From positions 310,001 through 374,000 of the forward strand of contig NW_026515670.1 of assembly GCF_025526975.1 (NCBI RefSeq): 64,000 bases of DNA, given 5' to 3'. Of the stretch, positions 36,456-64,000 are shown piece by piece. The notes beneath the pieces are model-generated. The model had not been told where the DNA came from. It saw only the letters and a program-made list of their open reading frames with translations, and searched no databases. Position 1 is the stretch's first letter. Each line of letters opens with the position of its first letter. Origin of the DNA: Fimicolochytrium jonesii (lineage: Eukaryota). Both the position numbers and the translations under genes were made by a program.

Positions 36456-38776
36456 ATGAAGTCTCCAGGCGCTTCGCAAAATCCCCACCATCCCCCCTCC
36501 CTCCAACTCCAATCTCAAGCCCTGGGCCTCCGCCAACGCACCGCCTGCGTCGAAAACCACCTCAACTGCCCCATCTGCAGCGACATCTTCGTCCTCCCCT
36601 TCCAACTCCAACAATGCGCCCACATCTACTGCCTGAACTGCATCCGCACCTGGATCCTGCACAAGCGCGAAAACGACGCTGTGGCGGATTGTCCCGAATG
36701 CAGGATGGAGATCACTACGAGACCGAAACACTGTAGCTTTGCGGCCAAGCTTATCGATTCGTATGTCGAGGTGTGTTTGAAGACACCGAACGTGGGCAGC
36801 TCGAGGGGGCAGAGGTGGGAGAGTGAGATGGATTGGGATCAGTCGCCTGTACGGCATCCGCCTTCCTCGTCGTCGTCGGCACCTGCATCCTCGTCGAGGG
36901 CCAATCCGTGGGCGGCTGTTAAGGAGAAGATCGAAGTCGCACGCGCACTTTTACGGAAGAAAAGTTTGGCGAGAACTCTCCCGTTTTTTGATTTGTTCCC
37001 GAACGAGGAGGATATGTTGATTTTCGATCATGAGGACGGCGTCAGGTTTGGGATTCTGTTTGGATAGGTCGTTCGTGGAGACCAAGCGCTTATCGCCCCC
37101 TTCTTCCTACAGTCGATGCTCGCGCTGCCACTGGGAGATCGAAGACGGCCGCTGCGTTGGCTGCGGACACGTATATAGCAGGCCCCAGGGTGCACCGCCA
37201 CATATAGCCGAGGAGGAGGAGGAGGAGGAAGATGACGAAGCTTACGAGGAGTCGTATACTTCCGATGACGGGTTTGTGGTGGATGATGATGAGCCTGACG
37301 ATGACGGTGGTGGCGGTGGTGGTGGTGCTGCAGGCAGAAGGACAAGGCTTGTATACGCAGAGGATACAGATGAGGACGAGGATGGACAGCCAGGGCCAAG
37401 CACGAACGGCAGCCGTCACGCTGCGGATATAACCTCAAGCGATGACGAAGCGAACGCCGGCCCATCGAACGGCAGACATCGTGCGGATATAACCTCAAGC
37501 GACGAAGATTCATACGTCGGCCGATCCGCGAACGGTCATACCCGTATCGCCGCAGACAGCTCGAGCGGAGAAGACGACGGGAGTGCGAGGCAGAGGAAGC
37601 GGAAACGGTCTAGGTTGATTGATGATGAGGCGGAGGAGGTTAGTGAGGAGAGTGATGAGGACGGGGGAGATAGTGATGATGGAGGTAAGTCTGCTCTGGG
37701 GCTCCCATACGTCTCATTCGATCCTTACTTTCCATTATCCAGTTCCCCACCGCCGCCGCCGTCTAAACCCCACCGACCAAACACGCGCCTACCTAAACGG
37801 GCTAGAAGGTAACTTCAACAACGACACTTCCGAAGAAGACGAAGCCGACTCCCCCGTGCAGCGGCGGCACCATTACAGCACCGAAGAAGAAGAGGATTCC
37901 CCCGTACGACACCATCACTACGACCCGGAAGAAGACGAAGAGGACTCCCCAAGGCCCCGTGTGGCCCGTCACCCTTACGACACCACGTCAGAAGAAGCCG
38001 GCTCCCCCGTACAGCACCACCACTACGACACCGAGGAAGAGGATTCATCCTCCCCACCACAACCACACCATCACCACGACACCGAGGAAGAGGAGGAGGA
38101 CTCCCCAGGGCCCCATGTGGCCCATCACCCTTACCACACGGCATCAGAGGAAGCGGACTCTCCCATACAGCACCACCACTACGACACCGAGGAAGACGAT
38201 TCACCCTCCCCACCACAACGCCACCGCCCATCCTCCTCCTCCTCCGACGACGACGATAGCGAATCGGACCATATTCAACCCCGGTCTCGCCGGCATGTCG
38301 CGGTCTCCTCCCCCTCGGACGACGACACAGAGGAAGAAGCTACAACCACCCACTCCCCGCCCCTCCGCACCAGCGAATCCGACCCCTCCATCGACTCACA
38401 GGACTCGGAATCACCGACCCACGCACAATCCCAATCGGACTCCCTACCCAGCTCCGAATCCGATGCGGAAGCAGAAGCTGCGGATGTCCGATCGGTGTCC
38501 CCCGCGGGTACGCTTGAGTCTGGTGGGGATGGAAGTGAACGCGGGCTGGAGAGTGGGGATGAGGAGATGGATGTGGCGCATTCGGATTCGGAATCCGAAG
38601 AGGGTGCGGCTGTGAGCGAGGGTGGGGAGGATATCGAGACTGGGAGTGGTAGTTCGAGTGAGAGTTCTGAGAGTTCTGAGAGTTCTGAGAGTTCCGAGAG
38701 TTCCGAGAGTTCCGAGAGCAGTGAGAGCTCTGAGAGTGAGAGTAGTAGTGAGGAGAGCGAGAGTGGGAGTGATTGA
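36456..38776 (+). CDS. PSH1: Psh1-like RING E3 ubiquitin ligase with long acidic tail
   Basis: C3HC4 RING (CPIC..CAHIYCLNC..CPEC), DHEDGV/RCSRCHWEIEDGRCVGC, D/E/S-rich tail; 2 introns. Confidence 0.75.
37840..38230 (+). repeat. coding tandem repeat (~156-nt period; HHHYDTEEE units) in the Psh1-like tail
   Basis: GTGGCCC(G/A)TCACCCTTAC recurs at 37961 and 38117; CACCACCACTACGACACCGAGGAAGA repeated. Confidence 0.85.
38660..38740 (+). repeat. 9-bp coding minisatellite (GAGAGTTCY)n encoding ESS
   Basis: Directly visible. Confidence 0.9.
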
Positions 38777-50753: not shown

Positions 50754-51156
50754 GCCCCCTTCGGATCTAATCATCGTTGATCAGAACGCACTGGCAAAAA
50801 GGGGGGCTTATAACTTGCGACAAACCCGACATCATAACAACCCGTCCATCTATATCCATCCCGATCCCACTTCCCGCCATCGCACATTCCCCGCCCGTGG
50901 GAGAGGCATCATAGCAACAGCAAGAACCACAAGATACGTAGAAAGAAAAGGTCCCTACCACCGTCATCATCCGCCCGTCCAAAAGAGATCAGAAGCAGTG
51001 TGCGCAGTCTCTTTCGGCCCGCCATATATATCTCCTTCTTACGAATCGCTCGATCCCCAACCGACGACGAACGATTTCGCATCTGAACTATACCCTTGAA
51101 TGAGACTGCATCTCATAACTGCATTCTACCCTTCCACAAAGCATTCCTACCGCACG

Positions 51157-52663
51157 ATGCATGTCTCATCCTCATCAGCACAAACGGCCTTCGACGATGA
51201 CCTCCACGGCAGCGCTCAAGCCCCCGAAAACTTCACCCTGCCCACCCTTCCCACGCTCAAGATCACCTCCCTGATCAACTCGGGGTCCTTCGCTACCGTC
51301 TACGAGGCCATCGATACCTGCTCGCGCGAGCGGTATGCGGTCAAGGTGCTGTCCAAGAGCAATCTGAGCAAGACGCATATGGAGACGCTGTGGAGGGAGG
51401 TTGGGATTATGAAGCGGATTCAGGCTGAGCGGGTGCCTGGGGTTGTGAAGCTGTTTAGGGTCGTGGAGAATGAGCATTGGTTGTTTTTGGTGCTGGAGTA
51501 TTGTGAGATTGATCTCTATGATGTGAGTATCGTTGCATTGCCCGGGACAGCACTTGGGATCATCGGTCTACTCTTTGTTGAATGCGTCCTCATCATCATC
51601 CTACCTCCATTCCTCCCAGGCCATCACGGAATCAAAACTACCAGCCCATGCCGTACTTCCCATCTTCCATGCGCTCTGCCGAACCCTGACCCACCTCCAC
51701 TCCCTCTCCATCTACCATCGCGACATCAAGCCCGAAAACATCCTCCTCACATCCCCGCACAGCGCCAACGGCTACTCCCACTCCCGCCGCGTCCGCCTCG
51801 CCGACTTTGGCCTCTCCACAATCTACCCGTGCTCAACCGACCTCGGCTGCGGGTCCAGCCGCTATATGGCGCCAGAATGCCTACCCAACGCACGGAAATG
51901 CGCATGCTCAACAGACAGCGGGGCCTTCAACTCCGACCAAGACGACGACGACTGCGACATCGCCCGCGCAGATCCATACGACTGCGCCAAAGCCGATGCA
52001 TGGTCCCTCGGTGTCGTCCTCGTCAACCTGGTCACGGGCAAGAACCCCTGGTACGAGGCCGACCTGTCCGACCCGCTGTACGCCGCGTACCTGTCAGGCA
52101 AGCCCGTGCTCCGCCACACGTTTGGATTTTCGGAAAAGTTCGACAATGTCGTGAGGTCGATCCTCGATCCGAACCCGGCTACAAGATGTGCCGTGCGTGA
52201 TGTGTGGGAGAAGGTCAAGGCCGTCCGCAAGATCTTTGACCCCATACCCCCGGAGGTCCCGCTCCCCGTCACATCGTCATCGTCACCGGTCGTCGTCGAA
52301 ACCCTCCCAAAAACCGTGATCGTAACCCCCACTTCATCCTGCTCCTCCACTAACGTATCAGCGGCCGTCAACCCCCGCATCGCCGGCCTGCAACTAACCC
52401 ACGACGCCGACTTCTACCGCCCCTCCACGCCCCCGATCAATACACTCACAACCTGCTCCTCCGCCCCAACAAACATCACAACAACATCCTCCCTCTTCAC
52501 CGCCTCGCCGCCGCGGTACATTGCGACCAACGGCGCGATGCATGACTCGGGCTTCGAGTCGGAGGAGCTGTGTGAGGTGTTTGGGAAGGAGGAGTGTTGT
52601 ACGATCGCGTCGCCGGGGAGGGAGGACGATGAGGATGTCTTTATGTTTGATGCGCGGGTTTGA
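51157..52663 (+). CDS. Ser/Thr protein kinase, Ran1/Pat1-Sks1/Vhs1-Ksp1 family
   Basis: SGSFATVY, YAVKVL, HRDIKPEN, LADFGL, GCGSSRYMAPEC, DAWSLGVVLVNLVTGKNPW; intron ~51523-51619. Confidence 0.92.
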
Positions 52664-54651
52664 CGCGGGTGGCGGCGATACATCATACCATCCTCACCTG
52701 CATCAAACGGCATCGGGCGGTCCGGGAACTCATCCTGCAAGGTCTCCCAACTCGCACGCGACATACCACTTCGCCGATATACCCCCCGCATGCAACCCCA
52801 CACACCGCGATACACACACTCCAACACACCCATATACCCTTCCCCCACATCCCCCACCCAATGCACACTCACCCATGTTGTTCTTTGTACCTAACACCGC
52901 CACCCCATTCAGGGGTGTGAGTCTGTGTTGTCATTTCACTTTATTCATCAGTAGTTTCTCATCTCTGTTGTTTTCTTGGACGGCTGCGTGGGGGGGGGGC
53001 CAGGTGGAGGAATGTGTTTGATCCACTTTTTTGTGACCCCTTGTTTTTTTTTTTTTATATGTGATTTTGAGTGTACTTTTTTTTTGCGGGAGTGTGCGAA
53101 ATGCAATACGAAAAATGAAATACAATGGAATCACCATATGCGCTTGAGAACATTTGCTGACGGCTTGAGCGTAAGGCGACCGTGGCATAGATCAGGCTGC
53201 TGGAAGATTTTTGTGAGCCTGATGCGGACAAAGCTCGCATGTCCCATGGGGCTATGTAAAGGCCTGCCTACAATTAGTCATATCATACACCTCAACTCAC
53301 GTAATGATGGTGGTCTGATCGAGTACCCGGATGTGTTCGGGTCATGCAATGGGGTTTTACGACACGATCTTCCAAACGAGATAGAGTCTAAGGGCTGCTA
53401 ACCACAAGAAGGTCGTAACAGGGCATGCTAAAATACCGTATACATAAGCTATGCTCCTGCTCCTTCCCCTCGACCTCGAGCCCCGTCCCATTCCCGGTTC
53501 CAAGTTGCCCGCCGGCCGGCGAGAAGGTTAGGATTCTTTCCGAAAATGGAATAGACAATGACGAGCTATTGGCAACGGTACGTGGTAATATCACACCAGA
53601 GGTCTCCCAGCCTCATAACTTGACAACCACCAGTGTGGATCAGCTGCATAAGGAAAGAAACTGGGACGCCGGTCATTCAGACATTGCATCAGGAGATGCA
53701 CGGCTGAGGGAGATGCTGTTCGGGCGTACAAGTAGAGACAATAGACTATGGATGGACGGCCAACATGGGACTCTTGACGTGGCATATCATCTCTGTCGCA
53801 GCAACCTTTACGCATATAGAACCTGCGCTTGAGATAGCACGACCCTCTTGAGCTGATCGAGGTGGTGCCCCTGCCAATGGTATCGATGTTTGGAAGGACT
53901 GCGTTTTTTGTTGCCGGAAAAGGGACTGCGAATATTCGACTCAGCGAACGTTCGACTGGAAGTCACAACTCAGCGTGTTCTTTCATGACACACGCGTTGC
54001 GGAGCTCTGAAGAGATGATGGAGCACGTTTCCTATCCCTTCAAGCAAGTACCTTTGTACTAGCACGGAATAGCAGCGAACTGCGAACTACACCATCTGGT
54101 CCGTCTATACTTCGATACCACTGCAGTATATACCGATATCACCTTGTGAGCCCGTAGACACCAGTCTACTACATGGCAAAATGTCGGGGAGAGCGGAGGT
54201 GTCGAGGGGAGGCGAGTTTATGAATGGAAAGCCAGAGGTCCTGAAGGGTTAGAGCCGTACGTAGTCTAGCATGGGGTGGACGAAGGTGCGGTAAATGCGG
54301 AGTCTATAGTCCAGGGGGGCCAGGGTTAGCTGAACCGAGCGAGTCGAGGGAATGCGGTGCTTTTGCGCACCAACGAACTCCAGAATGCGCTTTCGAGCGT
54401 CGACGCCCCGCCCCTCGCGATGCGCTTACAGTACAGTAGCTTCGCCCAAGATGCAAATGAGTAAACATAAGCGAGGAACCTGCATCTCGCCTGAGGGGAT
54501 CCACGCGAGTATATGAGGTCCCCAAGCGGACTTGATTGCCCCTTCGCATCTTCCTTCAAGCATCACAGTAAGGCAAAGTGATTTTGCGCTCGCCATCTTG
54601 CTATCGTATTACGCAGATTCGCCCCGAAACAGTCGAGGAGAAGCCACCGTC

Positions 54652-56828
54652 ATGGCCAAGCCTTCTGCCAGCGCCACCCCAGCGGTGGTTGGTGCTCAAA
54701 AAAAACCGTCAACCTTCCGCATCTTCGGAGTGGGAGCGCTTACTGGAGCATCCATCCTGATTGCTCTTGTCGCGTATTTCTTCTCCTCCGAGTCGGCCCT
54801 CATCGTCGAAAGAGCTCGCCGTGCTGTAGCGAAGCCTTCTCCCACCTCAACCACTACCGCTGGTCCCGCTGGGGGAACGAGCGTCAGTGGCGTGCCTCTT
54901 ACTGGCGTTATTCACGACTATTACTGGACAGTGACCAACTTCACCGGTAAGCTACCTCGCTCCGTACATGGCAGGGTCCGGGGAAGGCAGTATCGCTGAT
55001 GCTGCTATTTTTATTGTGCCATAGATGCTCCTGATGGCGTTTCCCGCACCGTTCTCGGTATCAACAACAAGGCCGGCGATCAGGCTTTAATCGGTAAGAG
55101 CCGCTATGCTCGCTTCCCGTCTGATTTCCTCCGAGGCTCATGCTTTAGATCTTCGTCGTCCAACAGAAGTGAATCTGGGTGATCGGATCCGCGTACACGT
55201 TCAAAATGGTCTCACGGCTCCGACTTCGATTCATTGGCACGGAATGTTCCAAAACGGAAGTAACATCATGGACGGGCCCTCGGGCGTGGCGCAATGCCCT
55301 ATCCCACCTGGCAAACTTTTCGTCTACGACTTCATTGCCGCGCAAACGGGCAGCTACTGGTGGCACTCGCACTACATGGCGCAATACGTCGACGGGCTGC
55401 GTGGACCGCTCATCATCCATGATCCAAAGGAGAAGACCAAGTACGGCTACACGGATGAGAGGACGCTCACTTTGGCAGACTGGTATAACCGCGCCGTCTC
55501 CAACGACTTGTTGGCAGGTTATCTGGTAAGTGTATTTATGATAGGACCCAGGTTTTCCATCCAGAGAATGATCTCCTGACGCGAGATGCCGTCTACTCCG
55601 TGCTACACATTAGTCGCCTACCAACGATGGGAGTGAACCAGTCCCGGATTCAATCCTCGTCAATGGAAACGGCTTCTTCGAATGCAAATACGCTTCTGTG
55701 TCTCAACACTGTGTTGCTAAAGACTCGACCACAGCCATGACGCGCATCACTGTGAATCCCGGAACGACCTACCGCTTTCGCTTGATCTCCATGTCTTCCT
55801 TCACCGCTTACAACTTCAGCATCGACGGCCTCAAGCTGACCATCATCGAGACGGATGGCGTCGACACCATGCCGTACGCTGTTGATCGTATCACAATCAA
55901 CAACGGTCAAAGGTACTCCGTCCTGGTCACCACCCCCCCCTCGACCAAAGCCAAAAATACGTACATCCGAGTCATCGGACTCCATGACTACCCGTGGACC
56001 GCCTCCCCTCCTGGGCCCGGATACCGTTTCAACGGCGCCGCGATCTTGCAGTACGCTGCCAACAGTCTTGCTTTGCCAACGACGGTCATGCCCAAGACGT
56101 TCATCGACTTTGACCAGTCAAAGGTCGGCTCGAACCCCCCGGCTGCGGCCCCGAGCAAAGCCACCGTGACCGTGCCCATCAGCTTCACTTTCCAAACCAC
56201 TGCAACGGATCCCATCCAACGCGCCTATGTCGCGTTTAATCCTGACCTTAAGAACTTGCATACGTGAGTCCCACCCTTAGTTCCATCTCTACGCCTTCCT
56301 CGAATCAGCGTGTTGAAAATGTTTTTTGACTCCATTAGGTACCAAGCTCCAGCGACGCCTGTCCTCATCGATCTGCTCAAGAACAAGAAAACCGTAGCTC
56401 AGCTGTCGCCGAACTCTAACGTGTTTGAGCTCAAGCGACACGATGTGGTGGATCTCATCGTGATCAACTACGACGGGGGCGAGCATCCTTGGCATTTGCA
56501 CGGGCATACGTTCTGGATCATGGGCCAAGGCACCGCGACCGCCTTCTCCCAGATCCCGAAAACCTTCCCCACGACGAACCCACCCCGCCGTGACGTCGTT
56601 ACGTTGCAAGCCTGCGATCTCGACCCCACCTCCGGCGATTGCGCTGCCGGCAACTTCGGTTACACCGTCCTGAGGTTTGTCGCGGATAACCCCGGCGTGT
56701 GGTTCTTCCATTGCCACATCGAGTGGCACATCGAGGCCGGACTCGCGCTGGTCTTTGCTGAGGCCTTGTCGGATCTCAAGGCCGCCCAATACCCTTTTCC
56801 CCAATGCTATACCGATCTTTGTGTCTGA
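54652..56828 (+). CDS. multicopper oxidase (laccase/ferroxidase-like) with N-terminal hydrophobic anchor; start approximate
   Basis: HWHG, WWHSH, HPWHLHGH and HCHIEWHIEAGL copper motifs; 4 introns. Confidence 0.95.
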
Positions 56829-57088
56829 GATTTTCTCCCCTCGGGAGCTCGTCTAATCGATAGTTCTTATAACACCCTTTCCGTAGTGTAGCTCGTTTTA
56901 TGCACTACGGATACCTTGTCATTCAGCACGATTTGTTGACCTGCAACCCGATTCTTTACTTTTCGCAAGATACAACTGACTCAGATACAGCTGAATGCTC
57001 TTGATGCGCTCCAACACTGCTCTGAAGAGTGCTGCTATTCGATGTGCTTCATATTCACTTGCCAGACACATTTGCAACAGTCGTGCCT

Positions 57089-57477
57089 TGTGATTGTGAT
57101 TGAGCCATATCGATAACAGAGTTGAATTAAGTAGGCGTGGCACCTAGAGACACACCCCCTTCCCGCCCCCCGCCCCCCCCCACTATAAAAAGGACTCCAC
57201 CGGCGTAGATTAACCTAGGAGGCATTTCACAGCTATAGACTAGACCCTAAGTTTGTACCATATAGTGCCCATTGACCCAACTGACTAGCGTACCTACACC
57301 TAGCAGTTCGGGGTTGCCAATATACGGACTACCCCTAAGCGTGTCTACTTGTGCGGTTAGAATAGGCCTTTTAGTTGGTCTCTGCCTTTTACCTTGCACT
57401 CTCCACAAGTAGATCATCTCCACCTGCCAACAACCCAAATTAGGACCAATCTCAGGGAATGATTGACCACTTTCACA
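57089..57477 (+). mobile_element. 5' LTR of outer LTR retrotransposon
   Basis: TGTGA(TT)GTGAT...CACTTTCACA, internal TATAAAAAGG, clear homology (inverted) to LTR 58150-58567, followed by a PBS. Left boundary is less certain than the right. Confidence 0.8.
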
Positions 57478-58149: not shown

Positions 58150-58567
58150 TGTGAAAGTGGTTGATTATTCCCTGAGATAGGTCCTGAATTGGGTCGTTTG
58201 CGGGTGGAGATGATCTACTCGTGGAGAGTGCAAGGTAAAAGGTAGAGACCAACTAAATCCCTATTCTCACCACACAAGTAGACACACTCGGGCGTACTCC
58301 GTATATTGGCAACCCCGGACTGCTAGGCGTAGGTACGCTAGTCAGTTGGGTCAGTTCAGCTCCTATGGTACAAACTTATGGTCTAGTCTATCGCCGGTGA
58401 GAAGCTCTCTGGGCAATCTACGCCAGTGTCGTCCTTTTTATAGTGGGGGAGGAAGGGGGTGTGTCTCTATCCTACTACTGATCACGCCTGGTCACGCGCG
58501 CACAAATACTAATCTTCCCTTGAATCTCCCCATCTCCTCGTACGCCGTCAACCTGATCACTTTCACA
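58150..58567 (-). mobile_element. 3' LTR (418 bp) of inner Ty3/gypsy chromovirus
   Basis: 10-bp terminal inverted repeats TGTGAAAGTG...CACTTTCACA; TATA box; directly preceded on - strand by PPT AAAAGAAAGGAGGA (58581-58568). Confidence 0.9.
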
Positions 58568-60299
58568 TCCTCCTTTCTTTTGAGCTTTTCTCTAGGAGGG
58601 ATGCTCAGAAGGGTTCCGCCGTGGTACTCCCTGTATTTTGCAGAAACTAGCCTGTTGCACCATGTTGCCATGGTGTGGTAGCCTCCGGGAACCTCCGCTA
58701 CTTGGGCGGATGTGTTGGTGAAGTGGTGTTTGGTGTTTGAGGTCGTGGGGTGTCATAGGTTTGATCAATCAGCGCGCGCTGGATGGACCAGCGCGGGATG
58801 GTCCGGCACCGGATGGTCTTCTCTTCCCCGGAGTCGTGGTCTGGGTCGCTTCCTGACAAGCTTCTGCACTGAGCATGCGTACTTTGAGCCACCATCTGCG
58901 GAGCACTTCTTCGGCGGCGGACTCGGGGAGAGGGACGACGTGTTAGTAGTCAATGAGATTTGTCATTGACGGCGTGATCTTAGCTCGGAGCGTAGGACAA
59001 CGTGGTTGCGGGGGTGAGGTCGGAGGGGTGGTTGGGTACCGAGCGACAATTGCGTCCAGGATGTCGTCTATGGTGGCGTGCTCGCTGGCGGCAAGGCTAG
59101 AGTGGGCTCTGCGGGCAGCCTCTTGCTGCTTGAGGCGGGCGATCGGGGCGAAGTCGTCGACGCCTGCGGTGTAACGGGACAGCATGTTTCGCCTATCCTC
59201 GTTGAATTGATCTGGGTTGCCGATTTCGTCGCCGCTGGCGATGGAAGCGTGGCCAATGTAGATGTCTGGCGACTCCCGCAGGCTGGTCTTGAGGGTTTCA
59301 AGCTGACTTTGAGGGTCGAAGTTTACGTCGGCCTTGGGACGCTGGGCAATGTTGAGCCCCAGGGTAGGCCATGAGCCGCCTCGGTACTTCACCCAGGATT
59401 CCCGAAGTTCCTTCCGGCTATGGGCGTGCAGGACATCCCGTGGCGTCGTGGTGGGCTGACTGAAGCGCCAGGTGTTGAGCCAGCTCCATCCGGGCAGTGG
59501 TCCCCAATCCAGCACTGTGTGTTCTGCTAGCTGGGTGCGGACCAAGGTGATTGTGCCCGAGGGTGTGTCAGCGCAAAGATGCAAATTGCGGAAGGGAAGG
59601 TCTCCGGCAGAGAAGCTTGCGTGGACGTATTGGACGGTGAACCCATGGTTGTTGGGGTTCACGTGGCAGTCTACGGTCACGTTGTTGTTCATGAGACACA
59701 TAGTGCCTGGAGAGCCCGCAGGAATGTTGCGTTGACATTGGGCAGGGAGGTTTTCGATAACCTTGCTTCGTCAAGCATGGCCAGCGGGGTCGATCCATTT
59801 GTGGCAAATGGCCATGCGCTTGTGTGCCGTGGCATTCTCCGCAAATTCTAGGTATTCCGCCCACCCAAGGCCGTATCTCACATGTCGACTTTCTGCTGTG
59901 GGGCAAGAGAATTTGCCCTTGTTCGTCTCTCCCCCGGAGGTTGTTGTTGTCCACACCCCTCCGTGGAAGACCGCCTGTGCGTCCACTGCTGGGTGCCCCC
60001 GTTGAGTTCTGGACCTCGGTGATCCTCCGTGTTTTGCTACGCCCTTCGGTGTCCTCCATCCTTTCGCTTGAGCGAACCAAGGTCTCCGGTGGCAAGCCAT
60101 TTCAACGCCAGACTTGACCACAATTCAGACTCTACTCTTGGCACGCCGAACATCAGCTCCTTGTCCTCCGGCTTGTCTTTGGGTTTGGGGCCAAAGCTCG
60201 CTACGATGACCTCAAGTTCCCAAATGTCAAGGGAATCGTCCTGATCGCTTGGAACGCCCCGGAGAGGTGGTACAGTCACAGAAAGAAGAGAAAAATGTT

Positions 60300-60371
60300 T
60301 GGGGAAGGTAGGATTCGAACCCACGCCACCTGGGTGAGAGCCAGGTGTCTTAACCACTAAGCCAAAATATG
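60300..60371 (-). ncRNA. tRNA-Glu(CTC)-derived Pol III module in the TRIM 3' LTR (no acceptor stem)
   Basis: A-box TGGCTTAGTGG, anticodon arm CCTGG-CTCTCAC-CCAGG, T-arm GTGGG-TTCGAAT-CCTAC, T5 run just downstream. Confidence 0.8.
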
Positions 60372-60646
60372 TGTGTTCCCGTTACACCTCCCCTTGACTG
60401 TACCAGCCTCTCGGGTAGATGTACCAATGTATGGGTATGATGGACCAGTGGATCGGTCTTATTTTGGTTGGAGTACCAGCCCGGGTCTCTGGTCCGCTGT
60501 GGGGTACACAGGACCCGGTCGTTGGTATCGCAGTATATGTATGGTCCCGAGAAGGACTTGTGGTGCTACCATGTCAGGGGAATCGTTCCGATTGCTCGGA
60601 ACGCACCGGAGAGGTGGTACAGTCACAGAAAGAAGAGAAAAATGTT

Positions 60647-60718
60647 TGGGGAAGGTAGGAATCAAACCCACGCCACCTGGGTGAGAGCCAAATGTCTTAA
60701 CCACTAAGCCAAAATGGG
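60647..60718 (-). ncRNA. second, more decayed tRNA-Glu(CTC)-derived module in the TRIM 5' LTR
   Basis: Same sequence; B-box mutated to GGTTTGATTCC and anticodon stem partly broken. Confidence 0.7.
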
Positions 60719-62119
60719 TGTGTTCCCGTTACACCGAAGGTTGGGGCCTGCGTGGATAATGTAGTTGGGCTGGTCGACGCGGGGGAAGGCGGCTTGGCGG
60801 AGCAGTGCTTTTGGGTCCTCTAGGTCATCGCGAGTCTCTTGGATGCCGTGCTCTTTGCGGAGGGCCTTGGCACATTGCGCGTAGTGCGGCTCCAGGTTGG
60901 TAATGACAACAAAGACAGCTTGCTTCAAGATCAATTCCTTTTCCCAGTCTTGCATGTGGTTGTGAGCCTTCAATCGCGAGGTCAGCACCGGGTGGGGGAA
61001 GAGGCCGTGCACACGGGTGTACATGGTGGATGGGATGTCCGTATACTCCTTGTATAGGCTCGGGAGCATGACGGTTTCGATGTCCCTCCCTGCGACCCGG
61101 TATGGTTGGTCTTCCTCCATATCCCCCTCCCCTGTCTTCATCGCAAAGTCGGTCCTCCACTTGCCGTTCTCATGGTCATAGAGCGCCAGACGCAGTCCCC
61201 TCCTCTTGCCAACATTCGGATGCTTGGTTGCAGTGATCTTGCCGTTGGTTTCCACATTCTCCGGGAGGTCTTCTAGGCAAGGCGGGCAAACGAAGTTGTA
61301 CCGGTCGAAGTAATCCCTCAGGACTTCTTCGTCTTCCTGAGGGTGGGGCAGTCTCTGGTTGTTGAGGCATTCTGGTTGGTAGAATTGGCTTCCACAGCAG
61401 AGGTCTCCGGTTCGCATTGAACGACGCGACCATAAATGGAAGCGCTATCGTCTGGGTTTTTGCACATGCAAACAGCTCCATTCTTCTCTGCTCCGTAGTA
61501 CTCCTCTTCCTCTCCGGGCTAGTATTCCACGTTCCTGGTCAGGGTCTTGCTCGTGAACTTGTCCTCTCCCGGGTCCAGGCCGGAGATGCTGAGAGTGGCG
61601 GAGCCAATGATTGCTTTGCCTCTTTGTCGTTCTTCCGGCTTGTCCAACACCTTCCTTTTCTTGCGGGTGTCAACAGGGGTGTCGCCGGCATTTTGCACGG
61701 TGATTCTGGGCAAGCGGATTGGCGGACGTTTGTTCCCCGTTGCTTTCACTGGGGCGGGAGTACATGGGCCGGTGGCTTCTCTGAACCCTCTGTCGATCTG
61801 AGGGGGAGAGTTGTCAACCTCGATTGGTTTGTGGGGGTACACGGAGCGGACGGGGGTACTGGGGACCGGCGAGTTCGTTCGTTGGTTCTTGGTCCTGGTT
61901 GTTGGTTGCAGGATAGGCGGCTTCGAGACTGCATTGGACAGGTCTGCGACGCTCGATCTTCTTGAGGAGGTGGTGGAGGATCTTCGGGACATGATGGTCG
62001 GAATTCTCGTAGTACCGGTTCGGGGTTGGTAGGGGGGAAGGGGTAGCAAAGGAGCATGGTGGGGAGCGGTCGTCGGTTGGGGGCTGGTGAGGGTCGAGGG
62101 GAGCGGCTTCTGACGCTCG

Positions 62120-64000
62120 CTATTTATGCAGTTCCGAAGAGGGGGAATTCCCTTGGGTTCTGGGCGTTCTCTCCCTTCTGTCCTGCTGAGCATTCTCTTG
62201 CTGCACGTCTTGCTCCCGCTGGGCTGCTGGGTACTCCACCGACGTGGAAGATGCCAGTTGGTCCGCGGTTGCGTGCTTTTTTGCCCATTTTTTTTCCTCA
62301 TTCCCTGCTCCTGTGCCAACCAGCTGACCCTTTGTCCCTCCTTTGTTCTGCCTCCGCCCTGCGGCCTCTGTGGTATCCCCGCTCTTATCTCCTCCCCTTT
62401 TTTGAGACTTCTGCGTGGATTGTCTCGTGGTGTGGCGTAATTGCGTGCTGTCATCGCCGGTCTCGGTGTCCGCCGTAGGTGATTCGTCCCCAATGGTGAT
62501 GCCGTTTGCGCGACAGTACGTATCCAGTAGCTCCTGGCCTCCGAAGTCCGAGAGTACCACCCAGCTGTCGTGCCCAGTGTTCCAGTTTTTCCAGTGGACT
62601 TTGAATTCCCATTTCCCGTTGTTGCCCTGATGGTGGTCAACGATCTTCTTGACCTCCCATTCATCCTCAACAATGCCATCAGAGCCTTCCGAGTCCGTGT
62701 CCGGGTCAAGCCCTCGCTTCTTCAGTTCGTGGGACGTCCCATACGTTCTAGGCCTGAATGGCGTCTTCTTCAGGACTCGAGCTGTCGCTGTCTGTGCCAA
62801 TTGAGCTGTCGAAACTTCCTCTTTGTCCATCTCAATTAGCTCCGTCGGGTCCAGCGGTCGTCTGGCTGTGAATGGTCGCATGCGTCGGATATGGGCTGTC
62901 CGGTAGATGACTTCCACAGGCGAGACGAGTTCCATAAGCTTGTAGGTGTGGCCGGTGCCGCCGACACCTACTACCCGGTGTGGTCCACTCCATTTGGCAG
63001 CGAACTTCTTGATGGCCGTCGCATTTTCCACATCGGTCGACTTGCGAAACTGAGGAATTGCCAGCCAGACTCGTTCTCCTAGCTGGTAGCTTGTCTTCTC
63101 GGAGTTCTTGTCGTACCACACCTTTTGTCGTGCTTGGGCTTTGGCGACGTTCTCCTTGGCCAAATCCCATGCAATCTGCAGGCGCCTGACAATCTCCGCT
63201 CGCAAGTCCCCGACCGGCATTGCTCCTTTCCCAATCGACCCCCATGGCTCCGTTGGCGTGTGGGATTTCTCCCACAAGAACCCCGGCATCTGGGGGTCGC
63301 GTCCGAACATCAGGTAGAATGGCAGCTCCAAAGTCGATGATTGCATCATGGTCCGATGAGCGAACAAGATGTACGGAAGTTGTCGGTCCTAGTCGTGGTG
63401 GGTGTACTCGTTCACGTAGGTCTGGATCATCTTCGAGAGCGTCTTGATTGTGTTCTCCGCAAGCCCATTGGATGGTGGGTGGTAGGGCGACGCTAATGCT
63501 GGGGCAGCCCCCAGTAGTTTCAGGAGAGCCTTCTGAACCTCGCTCGTGAAGGGCTGTCCACAGTCCGACGTTATCACTCCGGGGACCCCGAAGATGGTGA
63601 ATACATGCTCCATAAGTGCCCGGGCAACCGTGTACGCCTTTGCGTCCTTCAATGGAATTGCGAAGCAGAATTTGCTGGCGTAGTTGATGACAACGAGTAC
63701 GTATTTGAACTTCGTATTCCTTGTAGCCGGCAAAGGTCCGAGCGAGTCCATTCCGACCCGCCACCACACGTCTCCAATGACAATTGGGTCCATCTCTCCT
63801 CCTCTCGCAGACTTTGGCATTTCCGGCTTGTGCTGATTGCATTTGACGCAACTGGCAAGGGGATTGATCATGTCCGCCACGCATTCCGGCCACCAGAAGG
63901 ACTGTTGGAGTCTGCTGAAGGTTTTGTCTCTGCCCAGATGTCCTGCCAACAGGTCGTCGTGGCAGAGCTCCAGGCATTGTCATCGCAATTTGGCCGGTAC
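62120..64000 (-). mobile_element. Ty3/gypsy pol 3' part: integrase (HHCC, DDE, GPY/F) + chromodomain; premature stop at 63389-63391
   Basis: HDDLLAGH..CVKC, VGMD..ITSD..NGLAE, KWSGPH, EWEVKKIVDH..FKVHWKNW..DSW; TAG where the D-W-D Trp is expected. Confidence 0.95.

Follow-up and report, generated by a model that had tools for sequence, protein, structure and literature searches.

A chytrid LTR retrotransposon copy with a decayed third gene predicted to encode a PHD finger and a TET/JBP fold

We analyzed a 64,000-nt stretch of the genome of the chytrid Fimicolochytrium jonesii (assembly GCF_025526975.1, contig NW_026515670.1, positions 310,001 to 374,000; hereafter the window, with positions counted from its first letter) that contains a broken copy of a Ty3/gypsy chromovirus, a long terminal repeat (LTR) retrotransposon, with a further open reading frame (ORF3) between its pol gene and its 3′ LTR. 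The window covers the 3′ part of the element, and the 5′ half, with gag, reverse transcriptase (RT) and the 5′ LTR, lies beyond the window end. The pol segment (62120..64000, reverse strand) runs past that end and comprises the zinc finger, core and C-terminal region of the integrase (INT), followed by a chromodomain (62516..62659, reverse strand; PF00385, 28.2 bits versus a cut-off of 25.1). Pfam matches are to Integrase_H2C2 (E 2.1e-15), rve (E 3.5e-10) and Chromo (E 1.9e-6), and the frame is broken by an in-frame TAG at 63391-63389 before its terminal stop at 62122-62120. On the same strand follow a polypurine tract (58568..58581) of 14 purines immediately preceding the TG of the LTR and a 418-nt TG...CA 3′ LTR (58150..58567) with a perfect 10-nt terminal inverted repeat. 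The H2C2-rve-chromo order, the polypurine tract and the TG...CA LTR are those of a chromovirus. What sets the element apart from other chromoviruses is an additional 2.7-kb ORF that separates pol from the 3′ LTR; the presence of this ORF on the pol strand confirms the original prediction for this locus. A related, 5′-truncated LTR in the opposite orientation (57145..57477, forward strand; 83% identical to the 3′ LTR) sits 672 nt from it and ends at the same base.

The closest relatives of the window pol have the order RT-RNaseH-INT-chromo. A search with the window integrase returned 5 of 1817 candidates, three of them 61–65% identical, and the nearest full pol is P0024 (RT-RNaseH-integrase-chromo, 61% to the window integrase). 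In tblastn the window pol is 53–58% identical to two full polyproteins, P0024 and P0028, and the placement of RT-RNaseH before integrase is read in these two relatives only. P0028 (2196 aa, from a metagenome; 58% to the window pol) also contains, at residues 148-252 upstream of its protease, a stretch resembling Dam adenine methyltransferases, marked by an NPPW motif and a weak Pfam match (E 0.0074); it may represent a fungal DAM-LTR, or else a chimera that includes part of a DIRS element.

ORF3 (58769..61992, reverse strand) spans about 900 codons when a nested terminal-repeat retrotransposon in miniature (TRIM) is set aside, and comprises a disordered N-terminus, a PHD finger, a TET/JBP-fold domain and a helical C-terminus. 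It starts at ATG 61992, 127 nt past the pol stop. In the window it is a pseudogene with three internal stops, two frame changes and one insertion: the breaks listed in the original prediction (TAG 61521-61519, frame changes at 61414-61411 and 60070-60061, the TRIM at 60733-60225 and TGA 59773-59771) were all recovered, and the TAA at 58945-58943, which had been taken as the end of the ORF, proved premature. The database copy P0004 extends to the codon at 58772 and the ORF ends at 58769, so the length of about 850 aa first proposed is revised upward from the P0004 alignment. Queries with P0004 (880 aa) and with the open P0007 (1066 aa) align collinearly with the window by tblastn in four frame segments, at 77–89% identity per segment for P0004 and 34–44% for P0007. 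The frame joins are confirmed by four database copies (75–88% identity) and by P0007, and the frame is regained across the TRIM site, where homologues run GPNLR/W-ELEIIV uninterrupted. The window copy of ORF3, like the element that carries it, is dead.

ORF3 belongs to a multi-copy family. Two word-index searches with the window C-terminal half matched 2 of 3172 and 3 of 3981 candidates, namely the window's own 252-aa piece and four F. jonesii gene models, 75–88% identical, on four contigs. Searching 1.84 billion representatives with a profile yielded 17 matches at E<=0.001, among them the open P0007, from a contig of 7,591 nt, P0009 (788 aa), PHD-bearing distant members, pieces named Geranomyces variabilis and Borealophlyctis nickersoniae, and, from a fifth F. 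jonesii contig, two neighboring pieces of a more divergent copy. Copies in named records lie on five contigs besides the window's, and the named relatives are chytrids in every case. Accessions of the named copies are KAI8816198.1, KAI8825679.1, KAI8820213.1, KAI8821696.1/KAI8821697.1, EV422DRAFT_571922 and KAJ3164019.1. One of the matches, P0020, was discarded as false, being a repeat protein. The family alignment (A3, 18 rows) leaves out P0020, P0014 and P0017. The motif tally used below has 14 rows, with P0008, P0011, P0015 and P0016 dropped because the motif is missing from their coverage, and the tree has 14 rows, with P0008, P0013, P0015 and P0016 dropped as too short. Three relatives (P0018, P0021 and P0022) are compact PHD plus TET-like proteins of 480–510 aa with an HxD motif, from source contigs (ENA, Logan) of 7460, 7518 and 2197 nt; their carriers may be further mobile elements.

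The C-terminal half of ORF3 is predicted to adopt a TET/JBP fold, within approximate limits of 59420..61020 (reverse strand, interrupted by the TRIM) taken from a comparison of the P0005 model with CcTet. This assignment rests on an AlphaFold2 model of P0005, which is 85–88% identical to the window half (mean predicted local distance difference test (pLDDT) 53, most core strands 70–90). Foldseek placed CcTet first (E 3.7e-9), followed by CMD1, NgTet1 and TET2, and TET/JBP structures make up all of the top 12 listed entries (E 3.7e-9 to 3.7e-4). VIA-align superposed residues 314-677 of the model on CcTet over 292 residues (Z 20.7, root-mean-square deviation 3.9), with lower scores for NgTet1 (Z 17.7), TET2 (15.8) and CMD1 (15.1). 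Its best 16 entries are all TET/JBP (Z 20.7–12.0), and the next class, AlkB-like proteins and FTO, begins at 9.7; the modeled fold is thus of TET/JBP type and distinct from AlkB, as had been proposed from the TET/JBP-like motif. Sequence identity to solved TET/JBP enzymes in these matches is 8–13%, and the best viral matches include proteins annotated as JBP1/TET oxygenases. In the Atlas comparison the P0007 core scored 0.96 to Tet_JBP clusters (25 of 30 matches) and whole P0004 0.80, the latter a lead only, and the distant member P0019, 1 of 16 further matches, reached Pfam Tet_JBP below its cut-off (E 1.2e-4). A sequence search of the window half against the PDB gave 0 matches, and the family profile matched only PHDs there.

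Those matches, to EBS (E 2.4e-4), ING2 and BPTF, support the PHD finger that had been read in the N-terminal half (61277..61470, reverse strand; split here by the frame change near 61411). The ligand pattern of the predicted C4HC3 finger is present in all seven complete relatives shown, bar one Cys lost in P0006, and replacement of its His by Gln is confined to the window copy.

At the putative metal/2-oxoglutarate (2OG) site (59465..59665, reverse strand) the window retains the core spacing described for 2OG-Fe(II) oxygenases, with His 59665, Asn 59659 (Asp in canonical enzymes), His 59521 and Arg 59467. The original prediction took the Asn as a change in this copy. Instead, it is found in all four close copies (H-V-N in 4/4, as in the window) and in three distant members, P0007, P0010 and P0013, so the expectation that other copies restore HxD fails for the window's subfamily. 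Across the 14 family members the tally is 8 HxN, 1 HxK and 5 HxD. The first His is present in 14/14 rows, the second His and the Arg in 12–13 of 14, and five divergent members show no variation at either His, at an upstream Asn or at the Arg of R-x-S. Because the Asn is common to lineages only 42–59% identical in the core, one of them with an open frame, it does not represent damage in the window copy. Recurrent CpG decay as its source was rejected, as the window codons are GTG AAC and the residue is common to distant lineages; the Arg of G-R-S-W was rejected as the 2OG Arg since it is not conserved in the wider alignment, in which the Arg of R-F-S is. Asp occurs in each of the four most distant members, which separate from the close clade with 100/99 support; this makes Asp to Asn the likely direction of change, although the in-clade HxD member P0009 (H-T-D) is not placed by the tree. 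With HxD unrestored in the close copies, self-demethylation would need a non-canonical iron site. AspH, a 2OG oxygenase, is described as working without a carboxylate ligand, using two His (PMC10947486).

Decay of these elements is concentrated at CpG. Between the window and positions where its homologues agree there are 48 residue differences over 650 columns, of which 17 are classed as CpG transitions and 4 as other C>T/G>A, in a classing that favours CpG where both explanations fit; 17/21 C>T/G>A replacements therefore fall at CpG, which makes up 370/1561 (24%) of C+G positions. The two LTR pieces differ at 10/32 CpG positions versus 15/286 others (p 3e-5), with control dinucleotides at 6/50 (CA), 3/56 (CC) and 4/58 (CT), and the LTRs of the TRIM differ at 4/18 CpG positions versus 5/145 others. 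This bias suggests that the element was likely methylated by its host (5mCpG), and would provide a motive for an anti-silencing cargo. In Spizellomyces, 5-methylcytosine (5mC) is reported to be confined to transposons and N6-methyladenine (6mA) to mark expressed genes (PMC12695648). Between lineages the ORF3 core is much more conserved than the ends: P0004 and P0007 agree at 109/190 positions in the former and at 51/146 and 37/131 in the latter. The close copies diverge evenly, like decaying insertions.

These observations suggest that a fungal chromovirus carried ORF3 as a third gene, now decayed, for a PHD and predicted TET/JBP-fold protein whose active copies likely acted on 5mC against silencing, a proposal that we consider about as probable as all its competitors taken together. 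The host would write 5mCpG on these elements, and ORF3 would be made as a separate protein, like env-position genes, that docks on nucleosomes through its PHD finger. The two His could hold Fe(II), its third position being taken by the Asn carboxamide or by water, and the Arg could hold 2OG. Oxidation of 5mC to 5-hydroxymethylcytosine and beyond would then block maintenance methylation or reader binding, and the family would benefit through higher transcription and reduced CpG decay.

Several observations weigh against this proposal. HxD/E is lacking in 9/14 family members, and for that reason we file ORF3 as a TET/JBP-fold protein and not as a proven dioxygenase; a literature search turned up no description of a 2OG oxygenase with a natural HxN site. 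Neither the window pieces nor the four close copies match Pfam Tet_JBP, and the window's own C-terminal half yields a poor model (pLDDT 44) with no match at E<=0.001 (CcTet, E 0.026). The cage Trp of the EBS, ING2 and BPTF PHDs is Phe in the window's ORF3 subfamily. All close copies look broken, with divergence even across domains, and the family did not escape CpG decay: the cargo gave these copies no long-run protection. The substrate could also be T, 6mA or RNA.

Alternatively, ORF3 could stand outside the LTR family, as a host gene captured once or as the passenger of a nested DNA transposon. In Kojima 2025 the described transposon TET/JBP genes are all on DNA transposons, between which they move passively (PMC12730594), and the window is the sole ORF3 copy whose flanks were read. 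The local structure argues otherwise. ORF3 is separated from its surroundings by only 127 nt on the pol side and 189 nt on the other, its longest direct or inverted match between ends is 8 nt (shuffle mean 9.1), and it has no introns relative to P0007. Sense-strand AT skew is 0.20–0.28 in ORF3 and 0.26 in pol, as against −0.02 to 0.03 in three host coding stretches, and the window ORF list contains no transposase or Rep-helicase ORF between pol and the LTR. Short spacers, the lack of repeats above chance or introns, and a pol-like strand bias together make a nested DNA transposon unlikely, and the copies on five other contigs speak against a single capture. A second, distant element very likely pairs ORF3 with pol: P0016, which covers the N-terminal half of a relative of ORF3 (36% to P0004 over 156 aa), and P0024, the nearest full pol, each derive from a single Logan contig measuring 11,016 nt, and two independent nearest-relative searches reaching contigs of that size very likely found one element. 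Counting against this pairing, the evidence for it is the equal contig size rather than sequence read from a contig, and P0016 ends short of the TET core; scans of metagenome contigs, viral contigs and prokaryote genomes for flanked loci gave no confirmed relative. On balance we are highly confident that ORF3 is a TET/JBP-fold cargo native to the LTR family, and regard capture or passage as improbable.

Two further explanations accept ORF3 as part of the element and differ on what its product does. The Asn may have ended catalysis, leaving a pseudo-enzyme whose TET fold does no more than bind methylated CpG and shield it or, with the PHD and the chromodomain, tether element DNA or the integration complex to chromatin. 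Fixation of the Asn in divergent lineages and in the open P0007 fits such a role, and in 13/14 rows D or N occupies the fifth position past the first His, which we take to contact the base in TETs. Retention of both His, the upstream Asn and the 2OG Arg, unbroken in five divergent members, is not required of a protein that only binds, and P0009 of the same clade has H-T-D. There is precedent for a methyl-CpG reader borne by a retrotransposon (CopiaMBD; PMC6673714), and we consider the pseudo-enzyme a real possibility, at about half the weight of the demethylation proposal. Somewhat less probable still is an active oxygenase with another substrate or chemistry, acting on 6mA, thymine, element RNA or cDNA, or catalyzing a non-hydroxylating reaction through the open iron position. 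Kojima 2025 describes activity on both 5mC and 6mA for CcTet, the best structural match, and production of glyceryl-mC by CMD1 (PMC12730594); the weak Dam-like NPPW domain of the close pol relative P0028 hints at an interplay with 6mA. Against this, the mutational scar of the element is at CpG, and with 6mA on expressed genes in Spizellomyces its removal would be of no obvious help to the element.

The TRIM that interrupts ORF3 is itself a 509-nt Helenus-type element (60225..60733, reverse strand), with direct repeats 93% identical, a 5-nt target duplication (TTCGG/TTTGG) and a tRNA-like sequence in each LTR (Rfam tRNA, 35.8 and 26.6 bits; anticodon loop CUCUCAC). Helenus is described as a short non-coding LTR element with tRNA-derived LTR sequence and 5-nt target duplication in fungi (PMC10886601), and the TRIM has these features. 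As the word "chytrid" is not mentioned in the main text of that paper, the window TRIM may extend the Helenus host range.

Elsewhere in the window, an intron-containing gene at 54500-56830 (forward strand) stops roughly 300 nt short of the inverted LTR piece; from its motifs HWHG, WWHSH, HPWHLHGH and WFFHCH we presume it to be a multicopper oxidase. A protein-kinase-like gene in two frames, with motifs HRDIKPEN and DFG, lies at 51100-52663 (forward strand), and short stretches are duplicated in tandem at 37837-38225 and 37403-37535, the periods being about 156 and 60 nt.

Known systems share parts of this arrangement. TET/JBP genes of fungal DNA transposons are described on Kyakuja, Dileera, Zisupton, Plavaka, hAT, EnSpm, ESTA, IS3EU, Harbinger and Helitron elements (PMC12730594), and like them ORF3 is a TET/JBP-fold cargo in a fungal mobile element, with a proposed anti-silencing role and CcTet as the nearest solved fold. 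Unlike them, it has an LTR carrier, named relatives in chytrids and not in Dikarya, a PHD fusion and H-x-N. Kojima 2025 reports no TET/JBP dioxygenase in any retrotransposon, proposes a reason, and gives only HxD (PU, AG) and HxE (PE) as active-site types (PMC12730594). Compared with CcTet, NgTet1, TET2 and CMD1, ORF3 has the same predicted fold (Z 15–20.7) with His...His and Arg in register in the model, whereas its family has mostly Asn in place of the carboxylate ligand. DAM-LTRs and EpiLTRs carry epigenetic cargo, and Gypsy/DIRS DNMT elements are cited alongside them (bioRxiv 10.64898/2026.05.21.726589), while CopiaMBD carries the methyl-CpG reader mentioned above. These resemble the window element in combining an LTR element and a chromodomain with a DNA-methylation module, but they are writers or a reader, whereas ORF3 has an eraser-type fold, as a separate gene with a PHD finger. 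The introduction of the same 2026 preprint names "TET demethylases" among retroelement captures; we suspect that the source behind this mention is Iyer 2014, on DNA transposons. A literature search, with most subscription papers outside its scope, found no paper describing an LTR element that carries a TET/JBP gene.

The window element is a counter-example to the 2025 survey, from an early-diverging fungal group with 5mC on transposons. Beyond writers and readers, it adds to the epigenetic functions that LTR elements have acquired an eraser-type fold, here joined to a histone reader. Natural HxN (P0007) and HxD (P0009) members offer a pair for asking whether a TET fold without the carboxylate ligand is an enzyme or a methyl-DNA binder, and either answer would be new enzymology. 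More tentatively, and with distinctly less confidence than in the demethylation proposal itself, we suggest a clade of chytrid chromoviruses with a PHD-guided TET/JBP third gene, which would be the first DNA-demethylation module in an LTR retrotransposon and would use a natural 2-His-1-Asn iron site, a type not described for 2OG oxygenases; some relatives may also carry a Dam-like adenine methyltransferase. If true, some relatives would hold both an eraser of a silent mark and a writer of an active one.

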